Shown here: positions 321 through 53,429 of the stretch, in pieces
Numbering within the stretch: position 1 is the stretch's first letter
Layout of the letters: each line of letters opens with the position of its first letter
Source of the DNA: Candidatus Saccharimonadales bacterium
GTDB lineage: Bacteria; Patescibacteriota; Saccharimonadia; Saccharimonadales; UBA10212
Assembly (NCBI GenBank): GCA_035480715.1
Contig: DATIHL010000015.1
Span: 72,384-136,383 of the forward strand
Length of the DNA: 64,000 nt
Reading direction: 5' to 3'
Notes under the pieces: model-generated
The model's database searches: none
What the model saw: the letters and a program-made list of their open reading frames with translations, nothing else
Told to the model about the DNA's origin: nothing
Program-made: the position numbers and the translations under genes

Positions 321-355
321 AGATATATTATTTCACAATTTACTAAAATGTAAAT

Positions 356-390: not shown

Positions 391-825
391 TTATTCTCCG
401 TGAACCGCTGCCAACCCCTCCAGCTGACTACGAATTTCGTCAACTCGAGCAAATGTCATGAAATGTACATCCGAAAGCTCATACCCGACTGGCATTACTG
501 GAACTTGATCGCCGTCGCCGTATAGCGGCTCGGTAGAATTAAGGTAAATAACGCCTTCCTTTGATAACGCCATGGACTCGACTCCCGCTGGCTCGCAACC
601 GTGCAAATCCCAGCCCTCGACATATTCTATGACCCGTTCTCGTTTACGGAATATACTTCGGCGTACTTCTTTTTCTAAGCCAACAAGGCAATCAGTCGGC
701 ACTCTTCTACCACCTAGCCTCATAGCCAAGTCAGTGGCGTCCAATAAAAGTTCGGTGATTGCCTCGTCATTTTCTAACACATACTCGATGCCGTTCGGCG
801 CTTCGTAATCCCCGCTCGCACTCAT
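391..825 (-). CDS. hypothetical protein (144 aa, acidic, no recognisable motif)
   Basis: ORF track. The ATG at 825 is preceded by AGGAGG 6 nt upstream (taggaggaattttATG). Confidence 0.6.
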   Translation of the reverse strand: MSASGDYEAPNGIEYVLENDEAITELLLDATDLAMRLGGRRVPTDCLVGLEKEVRRSIFRKRERVIEYVEGWDLHGCEPAGVESMALSKEGVIYLNSTEPLYGDGDQVPVMPVGYELSDVHFMTFARVDEIRSQLEGLAAVHGE

Positions 826-10681: not shown

Positions 10682-11911
10682 TTATATTTTGGCTTGTAAA
10701 ATCTGGTAGGCTTTATCTTTTTGTGGATCTTTGGCGGCTTTTTGATCAGCATCGCTGATCTCTATTTTTGTATCAGGCGTAATACCTTGTTTATCGATGT
10801 TTTTACCGTCAGGTGTATACCAGCGGGCTATTGTTACCTTAAGCTCAGAACCATCTAGTAAATTCTCCACTTGCTGAACGCTACCCTTACCAAAGCTCTT
10901 CACGCCGACCAAAGTCGCTGCTCCGTTGTCATGCAGTGCACCGGCAGTTATTTCGGCAGCGCTCGCCGAACCACCATCAATCAGCACAACTGTAGGCATA
11001 CCTTTAAATGGGCTGTCGCCGCTGGCATATTTGGTTGATAGGATGGTCGAACCGCGCCGCTCAGATACGATTGTCTTACCGCTACCAAGCCACAGGCTTG
11101 ATATATTCACTGCACCGTCCAGATATCCACCTGGATCACCGCGCAAATCGAGCACGATAGCTTTAACGCCTTTGCCTTTGAATTCGGAGGCGGCCTTTTG
11201 CGCCAGACCTACAGTGTCGTTGGTAAATTGAGTAATTTTAAGATAACCGATAGCTCCATCTTCGTGGTATTGCACGCTGGGTACGTTAATCTGAGTGCGG
11301 GTGATTGTAACTTCGAAAGGCTTGCCGTTGCCCCTGATGATGGTCAATGTCACATTAGTATTAGCGGCACCGCGAATCTTGCGAACCACGCCATCTATAC
11401 TCAGACCGCTGGTACTTTGGCTATTCACAGCAGCGATGATATCTTTAGGTTTAAGACCGGCTTTTTCGGCCGGATAGCCTGCTAGCGGCGAAACTATGAC
11501 GATATTATTATCAGCGTCTGTGCCTAATTCGGCTCCTATGCCGGTAAAACTGCCCGAGAGTTCATCGTTGAACTCTTTAGCATCTTTAGGACTGAAATAT
11601 ACAGTGTACGGATCCCCAGCTGCACTCACCAGCCCGGATTTTATGCCATCCAACAGCTGCGATTGATTAAGGCTGCCGTCAAAATCGTTATTCAGCAGTC
11701 TATATACCTGATCGACTGACGAGTAGTCAAAAACAGAGGTAGGACTGACCGTTCGAGCCCGGCTCAAGCCCTTTACATTAATGTCTCCTCTACCAATAGC
11801 CAAGCCAGCTCCGAATATAGCAGCCAAAACGCTCAGTACAATGACTGATTTAATGAAGCGGCGCATCCTCCGGCGCCTCGGCCTAATTTCTTGAGCCTCG
11901 TATTCTTCCAC
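10682..11911 (-). CDS. ctpA: S41 carboxy-terminal processing protease with PDZ domain
   Basis: 409 aa, GTG start. N-terminal TM anchor, PDZ (GLKPKDIIAAVN), S41 core (GGSASAAEITAGAL ... SFGKGSVQ). Confidence 0.88.
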   Translation of the reverse strand: MEEYEAQEIRPRRRRMRRFIKSVIVLSVLAAIFGAGLAIGRGDINVKGLSRARTVSPTSVFDYSSVDQVYRLLNNDFDGSLNQSQLLDGIKSGLVSAAGDPYTVYFSPKDAKEFNDELSGSFTGIGAELGTDADNNIVIVSPLAGYPAEKAGLKPKDIIAAVNSQSTSGLSIDGVVRKIRGAANTNVTLTIIRGNGKPFEVTITRTQINVPSVQYHEDGAIGYLKITQFTNDTVGLAQKAASEFKGKGVKAIVLDLRGDPGGYLDGAVNISSLWLGSGKTIVSERRGSTILSTKYASGDSPFKGMPTVVLIDGGSASAAEITAGALHDNGAATLVGVKSFGKGSVQQVENLLDGSELKVTIARWYTPDGKNIDKQGITPDTKIEISDADQKAAKDPQKDKAYQILQAKI

Positions 11912-11990
11912 TAGCTATTTTCTAAATATTAAACTAATGCTTTTTATTATACAGGTTGTAGAGTTATTGGGATTATAGGTTATATGAAAA

Positions 11991-12014
11991 TACTTAACTT
12001 GTTAAGTATTCCCT
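11991..12014. repeat. P palindrome copy 2 (TACTTAAC-TT-GTTAAGTA plus TTCCCT tail)
   Basis: Perfect 8+2+8 palindrome read directly, ~80 nt upstream of the ctpA GTG on the minus strand. Confidence 0.8.
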
Positions 12015-12028
12015 ACTTTTGGAAAAGC

Positions 12029-12130
12029 GAGGCTCTTACTTTCCAGCACATGTGACAAAACAGATAGAGTCCGGACTAATTGGACGGGTGATATCCGGTT
12101 TTCGAGTGTGCTGGAAAGTAAGAGACCGAG
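12029..12130. repeat. structured element family Z, copy 1 (perfect 18-bp outer stem)
   Basis: CTCTTACTTTCCAGCACA (12033-12050) pairs perfectly with TGTGCTGGAAAGTAAGAG (12107-12124). The interior shares blocks CAGCACATGTGA.AAAACAGA.AGAG, ATTGGA, GATATC and CTGGA.AGTAAG with 16193-16296. Lies ~12 nt from the stop of 12136..13263. Confidence 0.6.
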
Positions 12131-12135
12131 CGTCT

Positions 12136-13263
12136 TTAGCCGCCGAAGTAGATATAGATTAGGCCAGAGCCGTTGATGTACATCTCTGAGTAGTGTCCAG
12201 CCAAGTCATAGTTGTATTGGCTGACGTATATCATATTGCCGTTAACCGCCTCTACCCACATAGCATGTCCGTAAGCTCCGCCCATCGATATGGCGACAGA
12301 ATGCACTCTGGGCACTGAGCCCGTAGGAATACCGGCAGACTGTGCGTCAGATGGCCATTGATTAGCATTGCCGACACCACCCCAGTAAGGCATGTAGCCG
12401 TAGGTTTGCTGTACTTTCCAGGCGGTGTAGCTAACGCACTCTCGATTGAGCATTCCCCAAGGATCAATCAGCGAATCCTGGTAGGCATTGTCCAGATATG
12501 CCGGATAACCGCCGTGTCCAGGATCACCGGCAACAGCTGTACCTCCGAGTCGATGATTGGCTGCCAGCTGCTGCATCCGTAAACTGGCAATCTGGGAATT
12601 GTTAGTTTTAATCTGCTGGTCATAATTGGCTTTCTGATCCTGGGTATACGCCAAAAGCTGTGCTTGCTGAGACTCTGACGCATTAATCTGGGCCTGCTGG
12701 GCCTGCTGATCTTTTATCCTACTCTGCAGTTCTCTTTGCTGTTCTTGAAGTTGTTGTTTAAGTTGGTTGATCTGATTTACGGTATCTGTAACCTTATTTT
12801 CCACTGCACTCCGAGACACTTGTTTATTAACGTAATCGCTCAGATCGTTACTACTCGCCAGGATTTCAAGGGTAGAAATCTTGCCCTCTAAATACATGGC
12901 TTTGATGTCTTCACCAAGGACATGTTTTTGGTGGTCAAGTTCGATCTGTTCGGCTTCGATCTTAACCTGCAGCTCGTCACTAGCCTTTTGATTAGATACT
13001 ATGGCCTGTTGCAAATCATCAATTTGTTGCTGCAGCTTATTAACAGCATCCTGATAGCTGCTGGCTTGGGCCGCTAACTGATTGGCCGATTGTTGATTAG
13101 CGGCGTTTTGATCTCGCAGTGCCTGTATTTGAGCGTCAAACTGGTCGGCGCGTACTAGTCCGCCATAGAATGTAGCACCAGCTAAAACTACAGCAATAAC
13201 AATAATCGCCGTTAGCGATTTAATATGAACTATTTTGTATTTTTCTAATTTTTGTTTTAGCAT
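12136..13263 (-). CDS. PcsB-like peptidoglycan hydrolase (signal/TM anchor, long coiled coil, C-terminal CHAP domain)
   Basis: Q-rich coiled coil followed by a CHAP domain (NRECVSYTAWKV ... GHAMWVEAV). Start set at ATG 13263 (MLKQKLEKYK...) because the TTG 13323 extension coincides with a TTGCAT-17-TATTAT promoter. The ORF-track alternative is 12136..13323. Confidence 0.78.
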   Translation of the reverse strand: MLKQKLEKYKIVHIKSLTAIIVIAVVLAGATFYGGLVRADQFDAQIQALRDQNAANQQSANQLAAQASSYQDAVNKLQQQIDDLQQAIVSNQKASDELQVKIEAEQIELDHQKHVLGEDIKAMYLEGKISTLEILASSNDLSDYVNKQVSRSAVENKVTDTVNQINQLKQQLQEQQRELQSRIKDQQAQQAQINASESQQAQLLAYTQDQKANYDQQIKTNNSQIASLRMQQLAANHRLGGTAVAGDPGHGGYPAYLDNAYQDSLIDPWGMLNRECVSYTAWKVQQTYGYMPYWGGVGNANQWPSDAQSAGIPTGSVPRVHSVAISMGGAYGHAMWVEAVNGNMIYVSQYNYDLAGHYSEMYINGSGLIYIYFGG

Positions 13264-13294
13264 CGAACTTTTTATTTTTTGTGCTAACGCTTTG

Positions 13295-13323
13295 ATAATA
13301 CTACACCCTCCACTCGCATGCAA
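13295..13323 (-). promoter_or_regulatory. sigma70-type promoter candidate for the PcsB-like gene
   Basis: Minus strand TTGCAT (13323-13318), 17-nt spacer, TATTAT (13300-13295). Confidence 0.45.
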
Positions 13324-13455
13324 TAGATACGAGCATTGTACAATTCACACTTTGCATCTAGCAGACAGCGCTTTTTATAGGGCTGATTTATAGCTGTTTA
13401 GAAAATGTAAAATGTTAATTAATTGATAGTTGTTAATTGTCGACTTGAGAAATAT

Positions 13456-14400
13456 TTATTGTCTGAGTTTAAGATACCGCCGTGTGGCTACTCCTGACGA
13501 GGCGGCACCAATTATTATACCAATAGCAATTTGTGTAGTCAAAATCAGCCCTAAATGATCCCTGAAATAGTGGTTAGAGAAGCTAATATCCAACAGCCCC
13601 AGACTACTGGCCTGTAAGGTAGAGCTGGCAATCGCAAAAAGCGAAGCGCAAACAATCAAAGACAATATGGCTGCTACAGCACCATAAAGCATCGTTTCAA
13701 CTACAAATGGTCCCCTTATATAGCCGGTGCTAGCACCAAGCAAGCGCATAATTACTAGTTCATCGCGTCGATTAAATATGGCCATCCGGATAGTGTTAAA
13801 GATTATGAGCATAGATATGAAGATAAAGACGATAATTCCGATCACTCCCGCTTGTTCAAAAAAGTGTGTGGCACTAGTGATTTTGTCGATAGCCGCTTTG
13901 CGATCACCCGAATAGCTGGTGGGGTCAGACTGCAGGGCTTTAATGTTTGGTTTATCCAGGAAACTCTTAATACTGGCCAGATTGTTGGGATCAATAGGTT
14001 TAATTACCAAAGTCGCCGGTAAGGGGTTGCTGGTCTCAGAAATTGCTGTCAATAGATCCTTATTATTGGCATTCTGCTGCTCATAGGTCTTTAAAGCCTG
14101 ATCTTTAGAAATATATTCCACCGATTTTACGTTATCTATGGCTTTCAGCTGATTAGTCACGTTGCTACGCTGTTTATCTGTCACACTGTCTTTTAAATAC
14201 ATCGAAACATCAATGTGGCTGGTAATATCAGCGATGGTGTGGCGAAATGTGGCGTTGGCGACCACTGCAAAAAGCAAAATCGTAAGAGTAATCCCCATCA
14301 TGGCGATGGCTGCAATGGCTATCCAAACATTGCGACCAAAATTAATAAAGCCGTTTTTAACGATACGCTCGAGCGTAATAAATCTATGGTCGTCTTTCAT
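13456..14400 (-). CDS. ftsX: cell-division ABC transporter permease FtsX
   Basis: 314 aa. Four TM helices with a large first extracellular loop. 4-nt overlap with ftsE. Confidence 0.9.
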   Translation of the reverse strand: MKDDHRFITLERIVKNGFINFGRNVWIAIAAIAMMGITLTILLFAVVANATFRHTIADITSHIDVSMYLKDSVTDKQRSNVTNQLKAIDNVKSVEYISKDQALKTYEQQNANNKDLLTAISETSNPLPATLVIKPIDPNNLASIKSFLDKPNIKALQSDPTSYSGDRKAAIDKITSATHFFEQAGVIGIIVFIFISMLIIFNTIRMAIFNRRDELVIMRLLGASTGYIRGPFVVETMLYGAVAAILSLIVCASLFAIASSTLQASSLGLLDISFSNHYFRDHLGLILTTQIAIGIIIGAASSGVATRRYLKLRQ

Positions 14401-15080
14401 ACTTCTTTGTACTGGCCGCTGGCCCTATCGGAAACAACTTTGCCGTCTTTTATTGTCACTACTCTTCGTCTAAGCTTATTAACGATTTCCTGGTTGTGCG
14501 TAGTCAGCAGTACGGTGGTACCAAAACGATTTACCTTCTCCAATACCGCGATTACATCCCAAGCGTGCTTAGGATCTAGGTTACCTGTCGGCTCATCAGC
14601 TATCAAAATTTTGGGCTGACGCACGATAGCCCGTGCTATGGCTACGCGTTGGCGCTCACCACCTGATAACTCTAGGGGGTATCGGTTGCCCTTATCTTTC
14701 AGCCCTACCACGTCTAAGACTTTAGGTACCGTGTGTTTAATCTCATTATTAGATATCCCGGCGATCTCTAGGGCAAAAGCGACGTTTTCGGCGACAGTCT
14801 TATTAGGGAGGAGCTTAAAATCCTGAAAAACTACACCGATTTTTCGGCGCAGCAGTGGGATATCTTTATCTTTAAGGTTCTCGTAATCAATACCGCCAAC
14901 GATTATTTTGCCGCTGGTCGGTTTTTCTTCCCTTGTCAGAAGCTTAAAAAGGGTAGATTTGCCAGCACCGCTGGGCCCGACTATCAGAACAAATTCTTTC
15001 GGCTCAACGTGCAAAGAAACACGCTCCAAAGCCGGCCCCCGCCGATTGTACGTCTTAGTTACTCTGTCAAGCAAAATCAT
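14397..15080 (-). CDS. ftsE: cell-division ATP-binding protein FtsE
   Basis: 227 aa. Walker A GPSGAGKST, signature LSGGERQR, Walker B ILIADEPT. Confidence 0.93.
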   Translation of the reverse strand: MILLDRVTKTYNRRGPALERVSLHVEPKEFVLIVGPSGAGKSTLFKLLTREEKPTSGKIIVGGIDYENLKDKDIPLLRRKIGVVFQDFKLLPNKTVAENVAFALEIAGISNNEIKHTVPKVLDVVGLKDKGNRYPLELSGGERQRVAIARAIVRQPKILIADEPTGNLDPKHAWDVIAVLEKVNRFGTTVLLTTHNQEIVNKLRRRVVTIKDGKVVSDRASGQYKEV

Positions 15081-15101
15081 TACCGCTATAGTATAACAAA
15101 A

Positions 15102-15130
15102 AGGGTTACAGGGTCAGAGGGTTGTAGGGT
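15102..15130 (+). repeat. four tandem AGGGT(T) units at 8-nt period (G3N5G3N5G3N5G3)
   Basis: AGGGTTAC AGGGTCAG AGGGTTGT AGGGTTAT read directly, between the ftsE start (15080) and the inverted repeat at 15147. Confidence 0.7.
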
Positions 15131-15168
15131 TATAGATAATAAATTATGACAGAGTAGGGATTTTGCCT

Positions 15169-15200
15169 GGCGGCGGGGCTGGAATGCTCGCCCCGCCGCC
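15169..15200 (-). terminator. GC-rich hairpin downstream of the island-1 ORF (no U tract)
   Basis: GGCGGCGGGGC / GCCCCGCCGCC, a perfect 11-bp stem with a 10-nt loop, 17 nt past the TGA at 15217-15219. Confidence 0.5.
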
Positions 15201-15216
15201 ATGACATGTTGCGCGA

Positions 15217-16041
15217 TCAGCTCGCCCTCATGATCTGAGCTGGCTGAGCCGAAGGATGTCGGTAGTCCGCACGAACCTCCTCGATCTCCTCCTCGGTCAT
15301 GCCGAGCTTGAGACCGAGACACTCGACAGCCGCTCTGAGATCCTCGATCTGATCCACCGAAAGGAGAGCGTGGGTTCGCAGCTTCTGTTCCGGAAGACTG
15401 ACAAGTCTGCCGATAGTCCCGACTTCTCCAGCACGGATCGCTGCGGCGGTACCTCTCCCGAGTCCCGGCAGTTGGACTACAGGCCACTCAAGCACCTCTG
15501 CCGGCGATGGCTGCTGCCTCAGCTCCGCGACCTCGGCGTCGCGCCAGATCGGCTGCACTGCCCCCTGAAACCTGCTTTCACGGAACTTGGCGTCCGGGAA
15601 CCAGTCTTCAAATACCCGACAGGTGTAACGCGACATCCTCGGCTCGAGCTGTTCACCGAGGACCACCAGCGACACCAGCTCCAGCCAGTTCTCCGGAAGC
15701 TGCTCGAGTGACGTTGCGTTCTCGACCATCTCGGCGAGGAACGCGCGCACATCACTGACGAACTTGTCGCTGTCCATCCACTTGAGGATGGTGTGGTAGC
15801 TCTTGCGGGTATAGCGCCGGAAGATCTGGAACATCGAGTCTTCCTTGAACGGATGGATCCACCACATGTCGTCCGCCCCCAGACGCACGTCGATGATCTC
15901 GACCGTCTGAGCGTTGGCCTCGATGACCGCATCGTCATGCAAGTGCAACCTCTCCGGCGTATCAAGCGAGCAGCCGATCAACAGTACGATCGGCCCATCG
16001 AGCTCCGGGTACTGACTAAAATCCAAGTTCACTTGGATCAC
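15217..16041 (-). CDS. hypothetical protein with RpoA alpha-CTD-like (HhH)2 C-terminal domain, high-GC
   Basis: 274 aa, GTG start. The C-terminus VVQLPGLGRGTAAAIRAGEVGTIGRLVSLPEQKLRTHALLSVDQIEDLRAAVECLGLKLGM aligns position-for-position with E. coli RpoA CTD ([60 protein letters not shown]). The N-terminal ~190 aa is unassigned. Confidence 0.65.
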   Translation of the reverse strand: MIQVNLDFSQYPELDGPIVLLIGCSLDTPERLHLHDDAVIEANAQTVEIIDVRLGADDMWWIHPFKEDSMFQIFRRYTRKSYHTILKWMDSDKFVSDVRAFLAEMVENATSLEQLPENWLELVSLVVLGEQLEPRMSRYTCRVFEDWFPDAKFRESRFQGAVQPIWRDAEVAELRQQPSPAEVLEWPVVQLPGLGRGTAAAIRAGEVGTIGRLVSLPEQKLRTHALLSVDQIEDLRAAVECLGLKLGMTEEEIEEVRADYRHPSAQPAQIMRAS

Positions 16042-16192
16042 CGTCCTTTCTGATCGCGGGTTTCTCTACTCTGTCAAGTTACTGCTTGGGAGCCACCCAA
16101 ACAGCAGCTCGACCAAACTTCATCACAATTATACAATAATTAGCACGTTAAGTAAATATATTGTCGGGCATCATGCAGAACTTTGACTGCAC

Positions 16193-16296
16193 GAGGCTCC
16201 TTGCTTGACAGCACATGTGAAAAAACAGAGAGAGCTTTGACCGATTGGAGAAGCGATATCTTGTTTTTGAACGTACTGGAGAGTAAGGGGCTGAGG
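16193..16296. repeat. structured element family Z, copy 2 (degenerate outer stem)
   Basis: Homologous to 12029-12130, sharing blocks CAGCACATGTGA, AAAACAGA, ATTGGA, GATATC and CTGGAGAGTAAG. Ends 3 nt from the prfB stop (16299-16301). Confidence 0.55.
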
Positions 16297-16298
16297 AA

Positions 16299-17378
16299 TT
16301 AGACTTTTTGGAGCCAGGCGTTGATAAATGGGTCGAGGTTGCCATTAAGCACTCCCTCAACATCAGATGTTTCGTAGCCAGTGCGTAAATCCCTCACCTG
16401 CTTATATGGATGCAGTACGTAGTTTCTGTCTTGACTGCCAAATTCGGTTGATTTGCTCGGTCCTTTTAGCTCAGCAAGGTCATTGACATGTTGCTGCAGC
16501 TGCAGCGCAGCTAGACGCGAGCGCAGGATGGCCAGCGCCGTTTCTTTGTTCTGCAGCTGTGAGCGCTCGTTTTGAATCGCTACCGAAATACCAGTGGGCA
16601 TATGGGTCACCCGGACGGCGGAGTCGGTGGTATTAACTGATTGGCCGCCGTGCCCTCCGGCGCGAAATACATCGATTTTAAGATCTTTTTCATCAATCAG
16701 AACTTCATCCGGACGCTCAATCAGTGGTAGAATTTCTACTTTAGCAAAGCTGGTCTCGCGTGAATGAGCTGTGTTGAACGGGCTCAAGCGCACTAGACGA
16801 TGCACGCCGCTCTCGCCCGCCAATTTGCCGTATAAAAAATCGCCGCCACTTATTCTAATCGTCGCACTTTTAATCCCAGCTTCTTCGCCGGCTGATTGGT
16901 CAAGGGTGCTAACATGTAAATTATTTTTTTCTGCCCATCGTGTGTACATTCTAAGCAGCATCTCGGCCCAGTCCTGTGCGTCTGTTCCACCTGCGCCGGC
17001 GTAAATACTTAGAACCACATCATGATCGTCGTATGGACCCTTAAATTTGAGGTCTTCTTTGAGCTCCTCATAGTCGTTTTCTAAATCAACCAGCTGTCTT
17101 TCTAGCTCAGTTTGCATGCTAGAATCGGCCAGTTCCGCCAAATCGGTCAGCTCTTTGGCAGATTTATGCAGCTTAAGCCACGGCCCAATTTTACGTTCAA
17201 GATCTGCGGCTTGCTTGCTAACCGTCTGTGCTTTGGCATTATCTTGCCAAAAATCCGCTTCGGCCATCTGATGATGAAGCTTCCTAAGTTCAGTTTCTTG
17301 CTCTTCAATATCGGTATGTACGTACATCGAATCGACATCAAAAAATAGTTTTTTGGCGCGTTGTTTTAGCTCTTCCAT
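16299..17378 (-). CDS. prfB: peptide chain release factor 2 (single uninterrupted frame)
   Basis: SPF tripeptide (RLSPFNTAHSRETSFA) and GGQ ([16 protein letters not shown]). Start taken at MEELKQRAKK (ATG 17378), 1 nt after the stop of the upstream M16 gene. The ORF-track extension to 17456 overlaps that gene. Confidence 0.9.
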   Translation of the reverse strand: MEELKQRAKKLFFDVDSMYVHTDIEEQETELRKLHHQMAEADFWQDNAKAQTVSKQAADLERKIGPWLKLHKSAKELTDLAELADSSMQTELERQLVDLENDYEELKEDLKFKGPYDDHDVVLSIYAGAGGTDAQDWAEMLLRMYTRWAEKNNLHVSTLDQSAGEEAGIKSATIRISGGDFLYGKLAGESGVHRLVRLSPFNTAHSRETSFAKVEILPLIERPDEVLIDEKDLKIDVFRAGGHGGQSVNTTDSAVRVTHMPTGISVAIQNERSQLQNKETALAILRSRLAALQLQQHVNDLAELKGPSKSTEFGSQDRNYVLHPYKQVRDLRTGYETSDVEGVLNGNLDPFINAWLQKV

Positions 17379-17379
17379 T

Positions 17380-18663
17380 TTATCTCCAAAGAGGCTGCAA
17401 TTGGTCGTACAATTTTTGAGAAAGCGTAGAATCAGTACCACCCAGAATCCCCACACTGCCCAGATCCTCGGAAAACATCTGCCTCATAGCCCTGGCCATA
17501 TCGGATTTAGTAACAGCTTTGATACGAGCCGGAATAGTGCGCATGTCTTCAACGTAACCATCAAAGAAATACCGGCCGTAGGCGCTAGCCACGCTGTTGA
17601 CGGTTTGCAGGGAGCGCTGGAAAGAACCTAGAGCGTATTGCTTGGCACCCTCCAGTTCTTTATCGTCAATAATGCCATTTTGGATCTTTTTAACTTCGGA
17701 CATAACGATATCGGACAGCGCCTGCGCATTTTCAGCCAACACTTGTGCGCTCAAAAACCACTCTGTAACCCGGTTTGAAAGATGGTGCCCCGAGCTCACA
17801 TGATAAACTAGGCCGCGATCTCGAGCCTGGCCAAAAATTTTTGAATAAAGTGTTTCTGTTAGCATGATGCGCGCTAGTCCCAATGCGTCGTCATCACGAG
17901 TAGAAATAATATCGTTTAAGTGCGTGCTGATTATCAGATAAATATTAGGCACTGTCTCATTAGCCACGAATACAGGTTTTTGCGGTTTTCTGGCTTTCTC
18001 TAGAGGTAGTTTGATGCGGCCAGGCCCTTTTGGCAGTTCGATTTCCTCGATGATTTTTTTAACTTCACTGCGCCTACCCCGCAGACTGCCGGCTATAACA
18101 AAGCGGATGTTTGACGCAAAATGGGTCTTTTTATAATGCTCGATTAGATCTTCCCTTTCGATATTCTTCATAAGATCAATGCGTTGACGGTCGGTGGCAA
18201 CATTGAAGCCAAATGATCTAGAAAGCTCGCTGGCCAGTTCGCGAAAGTGATTATTGGTATAGCTGGTGAGTTCGTCCCGGATGTTGCCGGATTCGGCGTC
18301 AAATTCCTGTTTTAAAAATAGCGGCTTAGTCAGACCCTTAAACAAAAGACCCAGTACGCGGTCCCATTCAAAGTCAGCCACTTCGCCGACATAAGAAACC
18401 GAATAATAGCTGGTGTAGGCATTACTATCAGCGCCGTTTTTTGATAGCTCTGATTGATATATTTGGCGGTCCGGGTAGTATTCATTAGCACCGGCAGCCA
18501 CTATGTGTTCCATTAAATGCGGCACTTCCCACTTGCGTTTCGGTACCAGAAATTCACCGGCCCTAAAATTGAGTTCATAACTTGTGACTGTAGCACCGGG
18601 AACATCGATTAGCAGCCCTTTGGCCCCATTCTTTAGCTCCACCTTATCAACTGTATGTTTCAT
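17380..18663 (-). CDS. M16-family (pitrilysin-like) zinc peptidase
   Basis: 427 aa. Inverted zinc motif HxxEH present (HLMEH). GGAGGAAG SD upstream. Confidence 0.8.
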   Translation of the reverse strand: MKHTVDKVELKNGAKGLLIDVPGATVTSYELNFRAGEFLVPKRKWEVPHLMEHIVAAGANEYYPDRQIYQSELSKNGADSNAYTSYYSVSYVGEVADFEWDRVLGLLFKGLTKPLFLKQEFDAESGNIRDELTSYTNNHFRELASELSRSFGFNVATDRQRIDLMKNIEREDLIEHYKKTHFASNIRFVIAGSLRGRRSEVKKIIEEIELPKGPGRIKLPLEKARKPQKPVFVANETVPNIYLIISTHLNDIISTRDDDALGLARIMLTETLYSKIFGQARDRGLVYHVSSGHHLSNRVTEWFLSAQVLAENAQALSDIVMSEVKKIQNGIIDDKELEGAKQYALGSFQRSLQTVNSVASAYGRYFFDGYVEDMRTIPARIKAVTKSDMARAMRQMFSEDLGSVGILGGTDSTLSQKLYDQLQPLWR

Positions 18664-18668
18664 GCAGC

Positions 18669-21311
18669 CTACTTCCTCCTTTTCTTTTTGTGGGTTGACT
18701 TCTTCTTGCGCTGGCGCTCGGCTTTGCGGGCTTTTTTGCGCTCGGCTTTAAACCGGGCAGTCTGGACTTGTTCTTCGCGGGTGCTCAAAAAATCTGATTC
18801 TTCAAATTCTTCGGCACTGGTCACTTGAGCGGCATTATCGACCGAACCCCGAGCTGCTCGCGTCAATTCGGTCTCAACTGCCCGCTCTGCCTCCGCCTCA
18901 GAAACTGGTTGGGCGTGCATAATGCCGCGCACGATGTCGTGGCGCAGTACCGCCTGCATATCGTCAAAAAGGCGCTGGCCCTGACGACGATATTCTACCA
19001 GCGGATCACGCTGACCGACGGAAATCCAGTGAATACCTTCACGCAAATGGTCCATATTTTCCAGATGCTGCATCCACAAATTATCCAGAATCTGCATGTA
19101 AATATCGCGTTCAACTTTACGCAATGTGTCGGCGCCAAAGGCTTTTTCCTGATTCCTATAAAGTTCTAATGACGCCTTCTGAAGTTCATCTTTGAACTTG
19201 TCAGCCGATGTGTCAAAGAGCTGATCAAGCGTTTTCGCATCAAGTGGCAATACCTCTGTTAGTATGGCTTCAAAGGTTTCGGTCATAGAGTCCGGGTGGG
19301 CTACCAGCGCATCGGCTTCTTCGGTTATAAATTTCTTGACGCGGGCGCTGATATCTTCTGCCTGCAAGACCTCGCTGCGCAACGCGTAAACCGCTTTGCG
19401 GTGGCGATTCATAACGTCATCGTACTGCACCACGTTTTTACGTTGATCAAAGTTAAAGCCTTCGACTTTTTTCTGGGCACCTTCCAAGCTCTTGGTAATC
19501 ATACGACTCTCGATCGGCGTATCCTCATCAACTTTCAGTCGGTCCATGATCGAAGCAATTCGGTCACCCCCGTAAATGCGCATCAGATCATCTTGGCAAG
19601 AAACGTAAAATTGGGTGGTACCCGGATCGCCCTGTCGCCCTGCCCGTCCGCGCAGCTGGTTGTCAATCCTTCGAGCTTCGTGTCGTTCGCTGCCCAAGAC
19701 AAACAACCCGCCCAGCTCAACCACGCCTTCGCCCAGCACAATGTCCGTACCGCGTCCGGCGATGTTAGTCGCTAGAGTTACTGCACCCTTCTGGCCGGCT
19801 TTAGCAATAATTAAAGCTTCGCGCTCATTATTCTTGGCGTTCAGTACTTCGTGCGGCACTTTGGCAGCTTTAAGCAATGCGCTCAAATGCTCGTTTTTCT
19901 CCACACTGACCGTTCCTAACAGTACGGGCTGGCCCTTCTTTTGTAGCTCGGCCACCTCTTGTGCAATAGCTCGGAATTTTCCGGGTTCTGTTTTGTATAT
20001 CCTATCTGGCAGATCTGTACGTACCATCGGTTTATTGGGCGGCACCTCGACCACATCCATTTTGTAAACCTGATGAAATTCTTCACTCTCGGTCGAGGCC
20101 GTACCGGTCATTCCAGCCAGCTTACTGTACAAACGGAAGTAGTTTTGGAAGCTGATTGTCGCTAGCGTCATTGACTCTTCCTGAACCTCCACACCTTCTT
20201 TAGCTTCAATGGCTTGGTGCAAACCTTCGTTGTAGCGCCGGCCGCGCAGCAGTCGTCCGGTAAAGTCGTCAACGATTACAATCTCTCCCTCATTTGTCAC
20301 CACATAGTCCTTATCGCGGTGAAACAGCGTTTGCGCTTTTAAAGCTTGTTCAAGGTGGTAAATAGTACGCAGATTCTCAGTTGCATAAAGGCTGCTGATG
20401 CCTAAGATTTTCTCGACAAACTCTACCCCATCGTCAGTTAAAATCACGCTGCGGCGCTTTTCATCTTTCTCGTAATGTTCGGTTTCTTTGAACTGCCGGA
20501 CAACTTTGGCGAATTGGTCATAAGCCGCGGCACTGGCCGTAGCTGGAGCCGAAATAATAAGTGGTGTGCGGGCTTCGTCGATCAAAATCGAGTCTACTTC
20601 GTCAACGATGGCGTAATTTAGATCACGCTGACGCAATTGGTCGGTTTCACGCACCATGTGATCACGTAAGTAGTCAAAGCCGTACTCGTTATTAGTACCG
20701 TAAGTTATATCGGCCGCGTAAGCCTCCTGACGCGTAGCCGGGCGCAAATGCCTCATTCGCTCGTCAAAGTGATCTTTATTCTCGTACTGCCGATCGTATA
20801 TATAAGATTGGTCCGGCATAACCACCCCCACGCTCATGCCCAAGAAGTCATAAATCTGGCCCATCCAGCCGGCATCGCGCTGCGCCAGGTAGTCGTTGAC
20901 CGTAACCAGATGCGCGCCCTTGCCTTCCAATGCATTCAAATAAAGAGCCAATGACGAAGTTAGAGTTTTACCCTCACCGGTTTTCATTTCGGCGACTTTG
21001 CCCTCGTGCAGCACCATGCCGCCGATCAGCTGCACATCAAAATGTGTCTGCTTTAGCGTGCGGGTAGAAGCCTCGCGCACGGCTGCAAAAGCCTCCGGCA
21101 AAAGCTGATCCAACGTTTTGCCACTTTCAAGCTGCTTTTTAAATTCGTCAGTTTTGGCACGCAGATTAGCGTCGGATATTTTTTTGTACTCACTAGTCAG
21201 CGCGTTAACTTCACTCACGCGCTTGCGCATCCGCTTGATTGTCGCAGCTTGAGGGTCACCCAATATTCTTTTTATGGGTTTACTACTCAGTTTTAATTTC
21301 AACAAAAACAA
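18669..21311 (-). CDS. secA: preprotein translocase ATPase SecA
   Basis: 880 aa. MKTGEGKTL Walker A and DEVDSILIDEARTPLIIS. Lys/Arg-rich C-terminal tail. Start position uncertain within the first 3 codons (TTG). Confidence 0.95.
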   Translation of the reverse strand: MFLLKLKLSSKPIKRILGDPQAATIKRMRKRVSEVNALTSEYKKISDANLRAKTDEFKKQLESGKTLDQLLPEAFAAVREASTRTLKQTHFDVQLIGGMVLHEGKVAEMKTGEGKTLTSSLALYLNALEGKGAHLVTVNDYLAQRDAGWMGQIYDFLGMSVGVVMPDQSYIYDRQYENKDHFDERMRHLRPATRQEAYAADITYGTNNEYGFDYLRDHMVRETDQLRQRDLNYAIVDEVDSILIDEARTPLIISAPATASAAAYDQFAKVVRQFKETEHYEKDEKRRSVILTDDGVEFVEKILGISSLYATENLRTIYHLEQALKAQTLFHRDKDYVVTNEGEIVIVDDFTGRLLRGRRYNEGLHQAIEAKEGVEVQEESMTLATISFQNYFRLYSKLAGMTGTASTESEEFHQVYKMDVVEVPPNKPMVRTDLPDRIYKTEPGKFRAIAQEVAELQKKGQPVLLGTVSVEKNEHLSALLKAAKVPHEVLNAKNNEREALIIAKAGQKGAVTLATNIAGRGTDIVLGEGVVELGGLFVLGSERHEARRIDNQLRGRAGRQGDPGTTQFYVSCQDDLMRIYGGDRIASIMDRLKVDEDTPIESRMITKSLEGAQKKVEGFNFDQRKNVVQYDDVMNRHRKAVYALRSEVLQAEDISARVKKFITEEADALVAHPDSMTETFEAILTEVLPLDAKTLDQLFDTSADKFKDELQKASLELYRNQEKAFGADTLRKVERDIYMQILDNLWMQHLENMDHLREGIHWISVGQRDPLVEYRRQGQRLFDDMQAVLRHDIVRGIMHAQPVSEAEAERAVETELTRAARGSVDNAAQVTSAEEFEESDFLSTREEQVQTARFKAERKKARKAERQRKKKSTHKKKRRK

Positions 21312-21368: not shown

Positions 21369-21393
21369 TACTTAACTTGTTAAGTATTCCCTG
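21369..21393. repeat. P palindrome copy 3 (TACTTAAC-TT-GTTAAGTA plus TTCCCTG tail)
   Basis: Perfect palindrome 5 nt after the serS stop. On the minus strand it is followed by TTTTTT. Confidence 0.8.
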
Positions 21394-23458: not shown

Positions 23459-23628
23459 TACTATATTCTAGCAGCTTACTTAACCAGCGAGCTGAACGGC
23501 CAAGAAGGAAATTAGCGCCAGCACAACCGCTACGATTACAGCTATTAGACCCCAGTTTTTGGTCGGATTTGGTGGTGTCTGTGGTTCCATGCTTACAGGA
23601 TAGAGGATTTAAGGCTTAGGATATAGCC

Positions 23629-34626: not shown

Positions 34627-35124
34627 TTACTTAACTGGAGCATAATCGACGTGGCAGGCGCCCATCCCGGTCTTTTCGGTGTATTTTTGGTGGTAGTCTT
34701 CCGCTAGCCAGAATGTATTGGCTTTTTCTAAAGTAGTAACAATTTTGCTATCAAATTGGTTCTTATTTAGTTCGTTAATTACTTTTTGAGCCGCGTCTTT
34801 TTGTTCGTTATCAAGGTAGAAAATGGCCGAACGGTAACTGTCCCCAACGTCGGGGCCTTGACGATTGAGTTGAGTGGGATCGTGCATTCGGAAAAACTGC
34901 TGCAGTAGTGTCTCGTAGGTAACTTTTTTTGGATCATAGATGATTTTGGTTGCCTCAGCATGGCCGGTTGTATGGCTGCACACCATTTCGTAAGTAGGTT
35001 TGTCGACGTGGCCACCGATGTATCCGACTTCCGTCTCTATAACTCCAGGCACTTGATCAAAATAATATTGTACTCCCCAAAAACATCCAGCAGCAAAAAT
35101 CGCGGTTTCGGTCTTAGTAGCCAT
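34627..35124 (-). CDS. msrA: peptide-methionine (S)-S-oxide reductase
   Basis: 165 aa. AIFAAGCFWGVQYYF active-site motif. Confidence 0.92.
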   Translation of the reverse strand: MATKTETAIFAAGCFWGVQYYFDQVPGVIETEVGYIGGHVDKPTYEMVCSHTTGHAEATKIIYDPKKVTYETLLQQFFRMHDPTQLNRQGPDVGDSYRSAIFYLDNEQKDAAQKVINELNKNQFDSKIVTTLEKANTFWLAEDYHQKYTEKTGMGACHVDYAPVK

Positions 35125-42947: not shown

Positions 42948-42989
42948 TCACAACTCCTTAAAACTTGTCTGGATACATTATAAGCTAAA

Positions 42990-43018
42990 TTGCAAATATA
43001 CGCCTTTTATGCTATGAT
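42990..43018 (+). promoter_or_regulatory. sigma70-type promoter of the mini-ORF operon
   Basis: TTGCAA (42990-42995), 17 nt, TATGAT (43013-43018). About 85 nt of leader before the first SD. Confidence 0.55.
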
Positions 43019-43109
43019 ATACGTCTAGCTAATGCCCTGCACGCTCAAGCGGGCCTGCCTAGCGGCAGTTTAGGTGTTGGCCCGTTCTTTACAACTTGGA
43101 GGAGAAAAA

Positions 43110-43202
43110 TTGGACTGGCCCCCCGTGGTTATGACCGCAGTCCTTGGCTTCGGGTTTCTTTACGGCATTTGGAAAAAAAGAAGGGAGAGAAAGCGCAAAT
43201 AA
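43110..43202 (+). CDS. mini-ORF a: 30-aa single-pass peptide with poly-basic tail
   Basis: TTG start 5 nt after GGAGGAG. (M)DWPPVVMTAVLGFGFLYGIWKKRRERKRK. The stop TAA shares its last A with the next ATG. Confidence 0.45.
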   Translation: MDWPPVVMTAVLGFGFLYGIWKKRRERKRK

Positions 43203-43309
43203 TGATCGCTGCGCTGACAACTACCTATTGGGCATTTCTGGCAACCTCGGTTGCTGGGCTGCTCATTGCTCTCTACCTCATGTTCCAACCAACGCGTCGA
43301 AGACGCTGA
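43202..43309 (+). CDS. mini-ORF b: 35-aa single-pass peptide with RRRR tail
   Basis: ATG in a TAATG overlap. MIAALTTTYWAFLATSVAGLLIALYLMFQPTRRRR. Confidence 0.45.
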   Translation: MIAALTTTYWAFLATSVAGLLIALYLMFQPTRRRR

Positions 43310-43319
43310 AAGGAGATCC

Positions 43320-43439
43320 GTGAATCTTCTAAAAGAGTTGTGGAAGCATCGTCCGCTGTGGGTGGTTTTCTTCACCAGCTGGCGATTCTGGCGCGACTAC
43401 GTCTTACTTCTTCGCAAAAGGGATAAGGAGGGCACGTGA
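43320..43439 (+). CDS. mini-ORF c: 39-aa Trp/Arg-rich hydrophobic peptide
   Basis: GTG start 5 nt after AAGGAG. (M)NLLKELWKHRPLWVVFFTSWRFWRDYVLLLRKRDKEGT. This is the 3' part of track ORF 43251..43439. Confidence 0.5.
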   Translation: MNLLKELWKHRPLWVVFFTSWRFWRDYVLLLRKRDKEGT

Positions 43440-43671: not shown

Positions 43672-43685
43672 CGAAAGGAGAGGCG

Positions 43686-43925: not shown

Positions 43926-43986
43926 TCTCCTCAAAGAAGAAAGTCCTCGGTTTCAGTTGAGCTATGAGCTCCTGGTCGAGGCACGC

Positions 43987-44010: not shown

Positions 44011-44022
44011 AATATCCGAAAT

Positions 44023-49908: not shown

Positions 49909-49961
49909 GCTTAACCCCAATACTTAACCATTATACTGAAAATTAACTGAATAAATGTGCC

Positions 49962-50142: not shown

Positions 50143-50893
50143 CGCCAGTCCAGTCAGATAGAACAACTATGATAATTAATATGGCGCACATAATCGCCAA
50201 AATCTGTCGTCTAAACGTCGCACTAAGACGTTCAGAGGCATCAAGATAATAGAGGGCGGCCAGGCTGTAACCAATAGTGGTTAGAATTATTAAAATTTGT
50301 GAGATAGAGCCATAGAACAACAACCAATGCCCCAAAACGAAGGCTAAAGATGCTGCAAAATAGGCCCAGATATTGGTTAGCAATCCCGTACGTGACTCTT
50401 CGAAGCTGCTCAAAAAATGTCTAGCTGACAGATATGTGACGCTCCATGTACCAAAAACTAGTGTTGCCAGTGGAGCATCGCCGAATTTCAAATAGAGCAC
50501 TGAAAGTCCCAATAGCTGCCCGATCATGGCTTGAGCCGAAACGCTCAGTACATCACTCCTTGGCTTCAACCAAACCAGCCAAGCGATGTAAAGCCCCATC
50601 CAAAACAGCTGCCACCAGGTGACCGAGGTACTCGACATAAACAGTACCAGACTGATACCAACTAGGATATCAATACCGTTTGAGGCGATATTAACCAACC
50701 AATAACGCGGCCTAACAGCAAAGATTCGCCACTTAGCCAGTAGAATCAGTAGGATGGCCAGCGACACAAAGTCTATCCGTACCAGGACATAGGCCAATAT
50801 CGGTAGCAGGATATTGAGGCCTAAATGAATAAAGTGCGAAAAGCCACTGACGGGCTTAACGCTAGCGCGCATTTTAGTTAGAAGGTCTTGCAT
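50132..50893 (-). CDS. polytopic membrane protein, function unknown
   Basis: 253 aa, about 8 hydrophobic segments. 20-nt overlap with the LCP gene's 3' end. Confidence 0.6.
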   Translation of the reverse strand: MQDLLTKMRASVKPVSGFSHFIHLGLNILLPILAYVLVRIDFVSLAILLILLAKWRIFAVRPRYWLVNIASNGIDILVGISLVLFMSSTSVTWWQLFWMGLYIAWLVWLKPRSDVLSVSAQAMIGQLLGLSVLYLKFGDAPLATLVFGTWSVTYLSARHFLSSFEESRTGLLTNIWAYFAASLAFVLGHWLLFYGSISQILIILTTIGYSLAALYYLDASERLSATFRRQILAIMCAILIIIVVLSDWTGATV

Positions 50894-52514
50894 CCTGTCC
50901 TAGAATTATAACAAAGGCAGTACCGAGTGGTGGACTAATGCCAAAACTGCTAGGCAGTTTGCTAACAGCCGCTACACCGAAGCGCTGTTCCAGGTAGTGG
51001 CGGGTATATTTATCTACACCTTTGCTTAAATCTACGATGGTCGTCGCCAATGGATTAGTAGCATTTGTCGCATTCTGGACCGTAGTGACGTTGTAACCAT
51101 AGGATTTGAGGGTGGTGGCAGTCGTTGTGGCCAGTCCCGCAGTCGTCGTGGCATTGTAAATGGCAACCTGGGCGTTTTCTTTAGCAATAAAGCCGTCGCG
51201 TAGGGCGTTTCTGACGTAACTTTTCATATCATCGTATTCAAACAGCCCGGCCCGTGGTTCAACAATTGAAAGCCCGTTTATGTTACCTGTTGTCAGAAGG
51301 TTATGCGGCGGTGTGACCAGATCGAGTGAAACGATAGCGTTAGAGCGTACTTTGGATGTAATCTGGTAAACGCGGCTAAGATCAGATCGTGAAAAGTCGG
51401 TATAAACATTGCTGCCAAAGCTGTCCAACAGTGAAGAGATTCGTACCGGATTAGCGAACGTGCCGGCCGAGAGAATTTTGTCCTTTAGGGCAACCAAAAT
51501 CAGACGTTGGCGCTCGCCGCGGGCAAAATCAGAGCTGGTCTCGCGCGATTTAGCGTAAAGCAGCGCCTTGTGTCCGTTCATATGCTGTAGGCCCTTCTGG
51601 GCGATAATTGAATTATAGTTGTTCTCCCAGGCAATTGTCGGGTCGTAAAGCTGCTCTGGAACATTAACATCCACGCCGCCCACAGCATCAACCGCTTGCT
51701 GAAAAGCCGTAAAGTCTACTACAGCGTGATAATGGATTGGCACGCCAATAACCGGCTCCAGCGTCCGATCGAGCAAATCAAGCCCGGCCCTCTCTTTATC
51801 AATCAGGTTTTTAGCTTTTGACTGCTGTTTCCCGTAAGGGTAAGCAGCGTTAATTTTTTGATAGCCGTCTCCCGGTATTTTGACCCATAGATCTCTAGGG
51901 ATGCTTAGTAGCGCTATCTTATTGTTTATGGGGTCGATGCTGGCCAGCAGAATCGTATCTGTTAAGTCCGGTCCATCGTGGCCGGGGCCGCCGATGCCAA
52001 GCAGTAAAATATTTACACGACCGTCGCCTTCGCCTTTAAGCTGGCTAATATCAACATCGCTGGCGAGGGCTGGTGCCCGCCCGCCACCGCGGAACAGGTG
52101 TCTTTGAGTAATATAGAACTTCGCTCCCAGATACAAGCCACCAGCCAAAAGTAGAATTAATAGCGATAAGGTAATGCGTTTAAGTGTTTTGCGCAGGCGA
52201 GCACGGCGAATTCGGCCTCGGACCTTATCCTTACGTTTGTCGTAATCAAGCTCGTCTAAAACGATCGGCTCATCAAGTATCGCTTCGCGCTCTGCGGCTT
52301 CGGCCGCAGTGCCGCCTAGACCGCCCGGTGACTGCCGCGTGGCATGGAATCCATCAGACCGCCGGGTAAATGCATCCAGCGTAGGCGTTTGATCACCTCT
52401 GTTGGGGCTGTAGGAATGACTGATCGGTACGCCTAAACGGCGGCCACCCGAGACAATCCCGTCTATCGAGGCTGGCCTTTTGTTCAGCCCGTCCGGCTTT
52501 TTTTTATCGCGCAT
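50874..52514 (-). CDS. LytR-CpsA-Psr (LCP) family protein with C-terminal LytR_C-like domain
   Basis: NILLLGIGGPGHDGPDLTDTILLASIDP and RDLWVKIPGDGYQKINAAY. Start set at MRDKKKPDG (ATG 52514); the ORF-track TTG start is 52544. Confidence 0.82.
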   Translation of the reverse strand: MRDKKKPDGLNKRPASIDGIVSGGRRLGVPISHSYSPNRGDQTPTLDAFTRRSDGFHATRQSPGGLGGTAAEAAEREAILDEPIVLDELDYDKRKDKVRGRIRRARLRKTLKRITLSLLILLLAGGLYLGAKFYITQRHLFRGGGRAPALASDVDISQLKGEGDGRVNILLLGIGGPGHDGPDLTDTILLASIDPINNKIALLSIPRDLWVKIPGDGYQKINAAYPYGKQQSKAKNLIDKERAGLDLLDRTLEPVIGVPIHYHAVVDFTAFQQAVDAVGGVDVNVPEQLYDPTIAWENNYNSIIAQKGLQHMNGHKALLYAKSRETSSDFARGERQRLILVALKDKILSAGTFANPVRISSLLDSFGSNVYTDFSRSDLSRVYQITSKVRSNAIVSLDLVTPPHNLLTTGNINGLSIVEPRAGLFEYDDMKSYVRNALRDGFIAKENAQVAIYNATTTAGLATTTATTLKSYGYNVTTVQNATNATNPLATTIVDLSKGVDKYTRHYLEQRFGVAAVSKLPSSFGISPPLGTAFVIILGQDARPSN

Positions 52515-52601
52515 CACAATATTGAACCAGTATACCATTAGCAATTAACTACAGGAACAGACGCTGTTCGGGTTCCTGACAGCTAATTGATGATTATTAA
52601 A

Positions 52602-52676: not shown

Positions 52677-53429
52677 ATGCAGCCTGAACGTAACCTGAAT
52701 TCCAACCCCGTTCCACGTAGCCCGGAGGATCTGCGCAATCTAGAACCAGTATTACCAAGCTCGGGCGCAACCCATCCCAGCTCGCCTTCGGCGCCAGTGC
52801 AAACTCCTCCGGAGTATAACTCTCCCCCACCTCCTCCGCCCAGACGCATACAGCGTTTTGAAGGTTGGCCTTCAATTTTCTCGACGCTAACGCTATTTTT
52901 ACTGGCACCGGTTATAGCTTTGTCGATTGCGGCTTTTGTAGTCCAGTCTTATCAGGTTGATGGACAGAGCATGGAAACCACCTTGCAGAACAATGATCGT
53001 CTGATCGTAGATAAATGGCCCCGTTCTTGGGCCCGTCTTACTGGCCATGAATATGTACCAAAACGCGGCAATATTATTATTTTTAACCAAACAGGGCTGG
53101 ATTTTGCCGGCGGCGGCTCTAAACAGCTAATTAAACGGGTTGTGGGCTTACCTGGTGAGCGCATTGTAGTCAGTGGTGGCAATATTACAATCTTTAACCG
53201 CGAACACCCAGACGGTTTTGATCCCGATAAATCTGGTATTTATCACATTAGTGCGACCGTTACGCCTGGCGAAGTCGACCAGACGCTAAAGGCCGGTGAG
53301 ATTTTTGTCTGCGGCGATAACCGCACTAACTCAGAAGACTCGCGTTATTTTGGCCCGGTCAAGCTCAATCAAATCGTAGGCAAATTGTCCTTCAGGATCA
53401 TCCCACTCGGCAAAGCCCAAAGATTCTAA
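52677..53429 (+). CDS. lepB: signal peptidase I with Pro-rich N-terminal extension
   Basis: 250 aa. GQSMETTL (catalytic Ser), KRVVGLPGERI, GDNRTNSEDSRYFGPV. Confidence 0.9.
   Translation: MQPERNLNSNPVPRSPEDLRNLEPVLPSSGATHPSSPSAPVQTPPEYNSPPPPPPRRIQRFEGWPSIFSTLTLFLLAPVIALSIAAFVVQSYQVDGQSMETTLQNNDRLIVDKWPRSWARLTGHEYVPKRGNIIIFNQTGLDFAGGGSKQLIKRVVGLPGERIVVSGGNITIFNREHPDGFDPDKSGIYHISATVTPGEVDQTLKAGEIFVCGDNRTNSEDSRYFGPVKLNQIVGKLSFRIIPLGKAQRF

Follow-up and report, generated by a model that had tools for sequence, protein, structure and literature searches.

An 18-bp palindrome that recurs in this DNA is likely to be the operator of a conserved MarR-family homodimer, encoded next to rsmA, which would control its own promoter as well as the promoters of secretion and envelope genes. 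The operator and the regulon are new here, and the kind of system, a MarR operator, is already known. To our knowledge, no regulon has been described in the phylum of Saccharibacteria. Hardly anything is known about how Saccharibacteria and other Patescibacteria regulate their genes, and a regulator paired with its operator provides an entry point.

The window, that is, the whole stretch of 64,000 nt that was analysed (G+C content ~47%), was searched with the pattern TACTTAACNNGTTAAGTA, i.e., TACTTAAC-NN-GTTAAGTA, with up to two mismatches allowed. We found six copies compared to 0.03 expected, and none of 100 shuffled window sequences reached this number. The 8-mer TACTTAAC or its complement occurred 12 times compared to 1.94 expected, close to the count of about 11 (with one or two expected by chance) given in the preliminary description of this DNA; nine of the 12 occurrences were arms of the six full sites. 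The recurrence of the palindrome in the window was confirmed as real. A variant form of the 18-mer is TACTTGAC. Positions and settings of the copies, along with those of the parA and parB genes and of the sites near marR genes of other Saccharibacteria, are given in Table 1.

Table 1. Palindrome copies, isolated half-sites and partition genes in the window, and palindrome sites at marR genes in other Saccharibacteria loci
Feature	Position of 18-mer, half-site or gene	Position with extension	Form	Setting
Copy 1	356-373	356-380	TGCTTAACTTGTTAAGTA, 1 mismatch, TTCCCTG extension	17 nt after the stop of 391..825 (minus strand)
Copy 2	11991-12008	11991-12014	exact, TTCCCT extension	79 nt upstream of the called GTG start of ctpA (10682..11911, minus strand)
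Copy 2b	16137-16154		TAATTAGCACGTTAAGTA, 2 mismatches	downstream of prfB (16299..17456, minus strand)
Copy 3	21369-21386	21369-21393	exact, TTCCCTG extension	11 nt after the serS stop (21398)
Copy 4	44023-44040		exact	1 nt after the tsf stop (44042)
Copy 5	52602-52619		TACTTGACTTGTTAAGTA, 1 mismatch	divergent spacer between the LCP gene (50874..52544, minus strand) and lepB (52677..53429, plus strand)
Isolated half-sites	23477-23484; 34628-34635; 49921-49928		second halves match at ~3 of 8 positions or fewer	
parB	53581-54468			
parA	54461-55222			
L163 marR spacer			exact	40 nt before the ATG
L165 marR spacer			two adjacent one-mismatch 12-mers, TTTACATGTTAA and TTAACATGTAAA	
L167 marR spacer			TACTTGACGCGTTAAGTG	overlapped by TTGACG-17-TATAAT
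L167 second site			exact	within the 3' end of marR; the neighbouring MFS transporter gene lies 81 nt downstream
L169 marR spacer			CACTTGACACGTTAAGTA	with TTGACA-17-ATAAAC

All five full copies named in the preliminary description were recovered at their positions, with 1, 0, 0, 0 and 1 mismatches. The arm that it had listed as a half-site at 16147-16154 is indeed there but is really a part of a sixth full copy, copy 2b. Likewise, a half-site that it placed at 23478-23485 exists one position to the left, and it missed the one at 34628-34635. With three isolated half-sites in total compared to ~1.9 expected, these elements, the one at htrA among them, do not exceed chance and are outside the system.

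The six full copies are all intergenic, in agreement with the placement between genes or at gene ends described earlier. Five of them lie 38-97 nt 5' of gene starts (those of a beta-lactamase-like gene, ctpA, a hypothetical gene, secA and the divergent pair LCP/lepB), and copy 4 lies between convergent gene ends. A distance of 1-11 nt from a minus-strand stop codon had been reported for three copies; this held for those at serS and tsf but not for the one at 391..825 (Table 1). The gene names serS, secA, tsf, ctpA, htrA, lepB and LCP were upheld by NCBIfam. Family searches confirmed secA, serS, prfB, ftsX, rpsB, frr and the class-C beta-lactamase-like gene beside the sites, as well as ctpA, tsf, htrA, the LCP-family gene, signal peptidase I, parA, parB and the CHAP-domain gene. 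From these neighbours a regulon of ctpA, secA, htrA, lepB and the LCP gene had been proposed. We found full upstream sites for ctpA, secA, lepB and the LCP gene, but only a chance-level half-site for htrA. The tsf-adjacent copy sits between convergent gene ends rather than 5' of a gene.

Promoter-like elements overlap or abut several of the copies. On the minus strand copy 1 ends 1 nt upstream of TTTACA-16-AATAAT (354..327), which sits directly before the ATG at 320 of the beta-lactamase-family gene (PF00144, class-C-like); the mRNA of this gene is probably leaderless. Copy 2b, upstream of a hypothetical 274-aa gene (15217..16041, minus strand), occupies the -35 box and spacer of TTTACT-17-TATAAT (minus strand, 16156..16128), and copy 5, equidistant (57 nt) from the called LCP and lepB starts, occupies the spacer of ATTACT-17-AATAAT pointing towards the LCP gene on the minus strand. 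The mismatch in copy 5 is an A-to-G variant that is also present in several marR operators. For copies 2 and 3, a good -35/-10 pair in register was sought and not found. Copy 2 is also 127 nt after the stop of the CHAP-domain gene (12136..13323, minus strand), and copy 3 precedes the called secA start (21311) by 57 nt, with a TACAAT box resembling a -10 element 23 nt downstream on the minus strand (24 nt from a TTAAGT hexamer). A palindrome upstream of secA was seen in another genome as well (L108). Copy 4 has no promoter and no gene start downstream. Thus, the promoter geometry varies among sites, and the overlap with, or abutment to, -35/-10 boxes, defined as consensus matches, is clear for window copies 1, 2b and 5 and for the marR spacers of L167 and L169. 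In the two latter promoters the left arm is the -35 element itself, in line with the earlier remark that the arms resemble -35 hexamers.

The preliminary description also mentioned a TTCCCT(G) extension shared by copies 1-3, and this extension is present. The flank TTCCCTG/CAGGGAA was found at window copies 1-3 and in L008, L103 and L155 (six of 100 intergenic half-flanks); its sharing is real.

A comparison with related genomes had been suggested in the preliminary description. In an exact-match scan of 185,579 species genomes (one genome per species), ~96 of the 119 exact matches listed came from MAGs of Saccharibacteria, Saccharimonadales or 'Patescibacteria'. From the motif length we calculated that ~140 exact matches would be expected by chance in the whole collection; with the share of Saccharibacteria guessed at a few gigabases, about one chance match would be expected in this group. 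Since ~96 Saccharibacteria matches were listed compared to about one by chance, the palindrome is a clade-wide conserved sequence. The Saccharibacteria genomes that carry it exactly span a range of 37-56% in G+C content. A scan of viral contigs produced 10 matches, which is the chance level. In the full-text literature we found no paper on the motif when searching by arm sequences or for a palindromic or intergenic motif of Saccharibacteria.

Among the exact Saccharibacteria copies listed, the flanks showed a symmetric A/T preference (aaW...Wtt). The central dinucleotide was TT/AA in 57% of the copies listed, AT in 19% and AC/GT in 13%. An 8-2-8 architecture with symmetric A/T flanks fits the size of MarR-operator repeats (~16-20 bp, with half-site centres ~10 bp apart).

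Beyond the seed copies, ~700 kb of site-bearing blocks from other genomes contained one exact, five one-mismatch and six two-mismatch copies. Given this rarity of near-copies, a typical genome probably holds from a few up to about 20 sites, and the window is unusually rich in them. On one 776-kb contig the exact sites were spread across at least 260 kb. The window sites are not positionally conserved: eight syntenic regions of other lineages, running from parB through lepB, LCP and htrA to tsf, had no site, so the window sites are lineage-specific gains.

A crude ORF call, checked by protein families, placed ~55 of the 99 exact Saccharibacteria copies listed inside genes and 44 in intergenic or gene-edge positions. 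With the intergenic share of these compact genomes taken as roughly 10%, the 44 of 99 listed copies mean that intergenic DNA is about four-fold over-represented. In tandem gene pairs, the distance was typically 1-18 nt from the preceding stop and 35-116 nt to the following start; at least eight copies (window copy 4 included) were located between convergent genes, and at least six between divergent genes. Other recurrent targets were rnpA/yidC, two Rpf-like transglycosylases, TauE and NRAMP; further targets elsewhere were an S8 peptidase, a cohesin-domain surface protein and a second MarR paralogue. The S8 peptidase, YidC, RnpA and NRAMP were assigned by reading the sequences rather than by family search. 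The target set appears to lean towards secretion and envelope functions.

The lead to the regulator was found by clustering the proteins that flank all listed sites. The most recurrent intergenic context among these sites, seen in five genomes, was a position 15-44 nt upstream of a MarR-family gene. This gene, located downstream of rsmA/ksgA, encodes a protein of ~140-154 aa with PF12802 and PF01047 above threshold; among solved structures this protein is closest to an unnamed MarR-family regulator (3s2w), followed by MepR, OhrR and SlyA-like proteins. Each fetched locus that encodes the rsmA-linked marR has an upstream site.

In a test blind to the motif, four more orthologues (P0136, P0175, P0234 and P0217) were taken from a protein search with long contigs as the only criterion. 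They are 44-55% identical, and all reside in the synteny pyk-pgk-tpi-uvrD-nudix-rpfB-rsmA-marR. In four of four, the 42-72 nt spacer between rsmA and marR carries the palindrome or a close variant. Altogether, in all nine orthologues examined, all from other Saccharibacteria, the spacer before marR has such a site; by our own calculation, a 60-nt spacer would contain a match with at most two mismatches with a chance of ~1.6e-5. The same nine proteins share the conserved recognition helix QTEA(S/N)(V/I)SRQ and wing NRREH. We also observed tandem copies of the 18-mer 6 nt upstream of another, unrelated MarR gene in two Bacteroidota genomes, which suggests that MarR-fold dimers use this sequence. 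The earlier suggestion that the palindrome is the operator of one dimeric DNA-binding protein thus gained support and a candidate protein.

Several of the MarR proteins (among L050, L165, L167 and L169) end in Cys/His-rich stretches, such as HEYACQSSTWCQ, a possible sign of redox or metal sensing. The gene that follows marR in L165, L167 and L169 codes for an MFS transporter or a TauE exporter.

In the model that we favour, the extended consensus, approximately aaW-TACTTAAC-WW-GTTAAGTA-Wtt, would be the binding site of a winged-helix MarR-family regulator that works as a homodimer and is conserved in Candidatus Saccharimonadales; in the genome at hand its orthologue would be encoded beside rsmA, outside the window. 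Each monomer would read one TACTTAAC arm, with the arm centres 10 bp, or one helical turn, apart. The protein is predicted to control its own promoter and, in this genome, also secA, ctpA, the divergent LCP/lepB pair, the beta-lactamase-family gene and one hypothetical gene. It would act by binding over the -35/spacer region or immediately beside it, most likely as a repressor relieved by a ligand or by a redox or metal signal. The model predicts a regulon centred on secretion (secA, yidC, lepB) and envelope remodelling (LCP, CtpA, Rpf-like and CHAP-neighbouring genes). For new genetic systems in these bacteria, the palindrome could serve as a ready-made controllable promoter/operator. Counting against the model are the ~55 of 99 listed copies located deep inside housekeeping genes and the at least eight copies between convergent genes, where a promoter operator has no obvious role. 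The lack of positional conservation of the window sites and the variation in promoter geometry among sites also weigh against it.

The operator could belong to a different dimeric regulator, e.g., the second MarR paralogue of L011 or another winged-helix protein, that also controls the rsmA-linked marR. Locus L011 does have an exact copy between the divergent second MarR-family gene and a hydrolase gene, and cross-regulation is common among MarR paralogues. On the other hand, MarR genes are most commonly autoregulated, no regulator other than the rsmA-linked orthologue was found repeatedly beside the site (nine of nine), and the recognition helix of this orthologue is conserved to the same degree as the motif. 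We consider a different regulator quite improbable.

The closest parallel to the rsmA-linked MarR system is found in Streptococcaceae, where dimers of the MarR-family zinc repressors AdcR and ZitR bind TTAACYRGTTAA overlapping the -35/-10 boxes, with one or two copies per promoter, including sites in the operon of the regulator itself (PMC6372160). The core half-sites and spacing of the two systems are identical (TTAAC-N2-GTTAA, a 5-2-5 layout). However, the AdcR/ZitR sites have a central YR, while the palindrome has mostly TT, AA, AT or AC, with YR in ~3 of the 99 listed copies, and its conserved site is longer, with TAC...GTA and A/T flanks. The Saccharibacteria protein is not an orthologue of AdcR/ZitR, neither of which appeared among its 53 PDB relatives at E<=0.01. 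Zinc-uptake genes were not seen beside the palindromes; the targets are secretion, envelope and housekeeping genes.

The MarR box of the SlyA/RovA type is TTAGCAAGCTAA. It has the same 5-2-5 palindrome layout but a different half-site sequence, and we saw no evidence for counter-silencing in the palindrome system. The system also recalls MarR-efflux pairs such as MepR-MepA, as an MFS or TauE transporter gene comes after marR in several lineages. Another shared trait is a number of sites above that of a one-operon repressor. We know of no description, for either SlyA/RovA or the MarR-efflux regulators, of perfect intragenic sites conserved over long evolutionary distances.

The frequent position of the copies at gene ends raises the possibility that they are weak, sequence-conserved, bidirectional intrinsic terminators or REP-like hairpins, the other reading offered in the preliminary description. 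Many intergenic copies are indeed located 1-18 nt after a stop, at least eight lie between convergent genes, and the flanks extend the palindrome by at least 6 bp, and up to 11 bp, in 10 of the 44 listed intergenic copies. The adjacency to stop codons, though, is largely explained by the motif itself, which has TAA in two of three frames on either strand, so that ORFs entering it end there. Copies 2 and 3 fold, together with a U-run, to -10 and -11.8 kcal/mol (z of about -5.7 and -5.8) because GGGAA pairs with the U-run (UUUUU). The other four of the six window copies (1, 2b, 4 and 5) have folding energies from -1 to -5.5 kcal/mol and z from -0.9 to +0.4, no better than shuffles. The core stem contains one G-C pair, in contrast to the G+C-rich terminator beside copy 4, which folds to -17.2 kcal/mol. 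This strong plus-strand terminator (43987-44010), located just left of copy 4, closes a run of small hydrophobic plus-strand ORFs. Rfam had no match in the window at the gathering score and none of note around copy 4. Moreover, copy 5 and several other copies lie between divergent genes, and half of the listed copies are inside ORFs. Exact conservation across the class and the invariable presence in marR promoters, overlapping -35 boxes, are unlike terminators or REPs; REP/RAYT elements in particular are strictly extragenic, lineage-specific, numerous and associated with a Y1 transposase, while the exact palindrome is shared by the class, is low in copy number and is intragenic in about half of the cases. 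The hairpin reading is very improbable.

A different chromosomal role was considered as well, since the window contains parA and parB (53581-55222), with a turn of the GC skew near 56 kb and six high-fidelity sites within 53 kb of parB. In this alternative the unusual ParB of Saccharimonadales would use the palindrome as a non-canonical, parS-like centromere or as another kind of site for organising the chromosome. The window ParB is 100% identical to a protein from a Candidatus Saccharimonadales MAG. Aligned with Caulobacter ParB, it carries L, A and P in place of the DNA-contact residues Q162, S172 and R173, and M, Q and G at 179, 184 and 201; the roles of these residues, with R173 described as invariable in parS-binding variants, were taken from the literature (PMC7383237). 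The ParB helix LGKAPSTVSN is nearly universal among 120 Saccharimonadales homologues. Canonical parS was not found at up to three mismatches either in the window or in ~190 kb of parB-flanking DNA of relatives (L120-L132, L146-L157). From the altered contact residues and the lack of canonical parS in the searched DNA, we infer that the centromere of Saccharimonadales is non-canonical. The half-site TACTTAAC shares five of eight bases with both parS (TGTTTCAC) and NBS (TATTTCCC). Similarly to the sites of ParB and Noc, the palindromes are of high fidelity, occur within genes and in all intergenic contexts, and are each perfect or absent, which is typical of parS.

Still, the distribution of the sites around parB points the other way. 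The 13 metagenomic parB loci had no palindrome site, and eight longer parB regions, with the synteny parA-parB-lepB-LCP-x-htrA-...-prmC-prfA-rpmE-rpsB-tsf, had no copy with up to two mismatches. Within 10 kb on either side of parB in relatives no site was present; altogether, no site at this threshold was present in ~190 kb of DNA around parB from ~20 lineages that share the ParB helix and synteny. A search for another recurrent palindrome near parB found none. Conversely, none of the ~96 site-bearing 8-kb blocks listed contains parA or parB. The spread of exact sites on the 776-kb contig, the two extra central base pairs relative to the 16-bp TGTTNCACGTGAAACA-like parS and the association with marR promoters in nine of nine genomes, which is unparalleled in parS/NBS systems and is left unexplained, also count against a ParB site. 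As the main explanation it was set aside on account of the site-free ~190 kb, and we give this reading little credence.

Beyond parA a giant minus-strand ORF (56632-63999, >2,445 aa) runs off the window. Its C-rich coding strand accounts for the positive GC skew towards the window's right edge, and the apparent skew minimum at about 56 kb is therefore not necessarily the mark of an origin.

The intragenic copies are the part of the distribution that a promoter operator explains least readily. Those located deep inside genes lie 225-1,970 nt from the gene start and 240-830 nt from the gene end. Among the copies listed, the same codon position was hit in RecX (14 genomes), FolD (six), ValS (five or six), TsaB (three or four) and RNase HII, cysteine desulfurase, GatB, ApbE and MurI (two each); AspS, HisS, AlaS, Dus, RsmD, MurJ, RluD and a histidine kinase gave single cases. 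Since one reading frame of the motif is open, all of these copies encode x-L-N-x-L-S-x. We compared orthologues that happened to lie in other fetched loci and found that the site was either perfect or absent: six vs. three for FolD, three vs. seven for TsaB, two vs. five for MurI and one vs. three for AspS. Where the site is absent the peptide is unrelated, and where it is present a variable segment of the protein is replaced by x-L-N-x-L-S-x. For RecX the peptide [IL]LNKLS was found in 93 of 120 close homologues. Such perfect sites that rewrite protein segments make a concrete, directly testable puzzle.

No -10 box in register was found by eye downstream of the intragenic recX sites. An idea that the recX and tsaB sites substitute for one another within one neighbourhood was dropped, with too few genomes and a pattern compatible with independence.

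Copies within genes and between convergent genes hint at a further role of the protein outside promoters, where it may serve as a roadblock, insulator or structural factor. In a broader version of the model, the MarR-type protein would be a genome-wide factor of Saccharimonadales, with sites selected inside housekeeping genes (recX, folD, valS, tsaB, gatB, alaS) and between convergent genes, working as a signal-controlled roadblock or insulator or in structuring the chromosome. We regard this broader version as rather doubtful; if it were true, a minimal genome with few regulators would throttle growth functions via one sensor.

The rewriting of variable protein segments by high-fidelity copies would also fit a DNA uptake signal accumulated through biased natural transformation, or some other genome-wide tag. 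Saccharibacteria are naturally competent, coding and non-coding DNA carry copies alike, and recX and rnhB are among the host genes. A gene with a TfoX_N domain, of a competence-regulator family, is located just left of the window (~2 kb from its start in locus L160, beyond the beta-lactamase-family gene). However, the density is far too low: ~12 extra copies with up to two mismatches in 700 kb and about one per 190 kb near parB, that is, roughly one per 10-190 kb, while DUS and USS occur at about one per kb. Known uptake signals are asymmetric 9-12-mers, in contrast to the palindrome, and the association with marR promoters is left unexplained. The uptake idea was rejected on density, and any such tag appears extremely improbable.

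Several minor features of the window were observed as well. The 253-aa protein encoded at 22697-23458 matches the Cas4/PD-(D/E)XK nuclease family weakly, at 37.7 bits with a cut-off of 65 bits, and no CRISPR array was visible in its vicinity. In relatives tsf and frr are neighbours; here a 1.1-kb insert (42948-44022) separates them. It carries small hydrophobic ORFs on the plus strand (e.g., 43686-43925, 79 aa) and ends in the terminator at 43987-44010.

The region 10682-21311 is a conserved minus-strand division/envelope cluster made of secA, a 427-aa gene, prfB, a hypothetical gene, ftsE (assigned from the N-terminal sequence only), ftsX, a CHAP-domain hydrolase gene and ctpA, with palindrome copies at three of its internal boundaries. 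A structured element of ~105 nt occurs there twice, after the CHAP-domain gene (12020-12135) and after prfB (16185-16300). The element had no Rfam match, and its 12-nt core CAGCACATGTGA had no match in the other Saccharibacteria loci fetched. The two copies are 77% identical, each adjoins a palindrome copy, and both fold better as plus-strand RNA, to -54.9 and -44.2 kcal/mol (z of -7.6 and -6.7).
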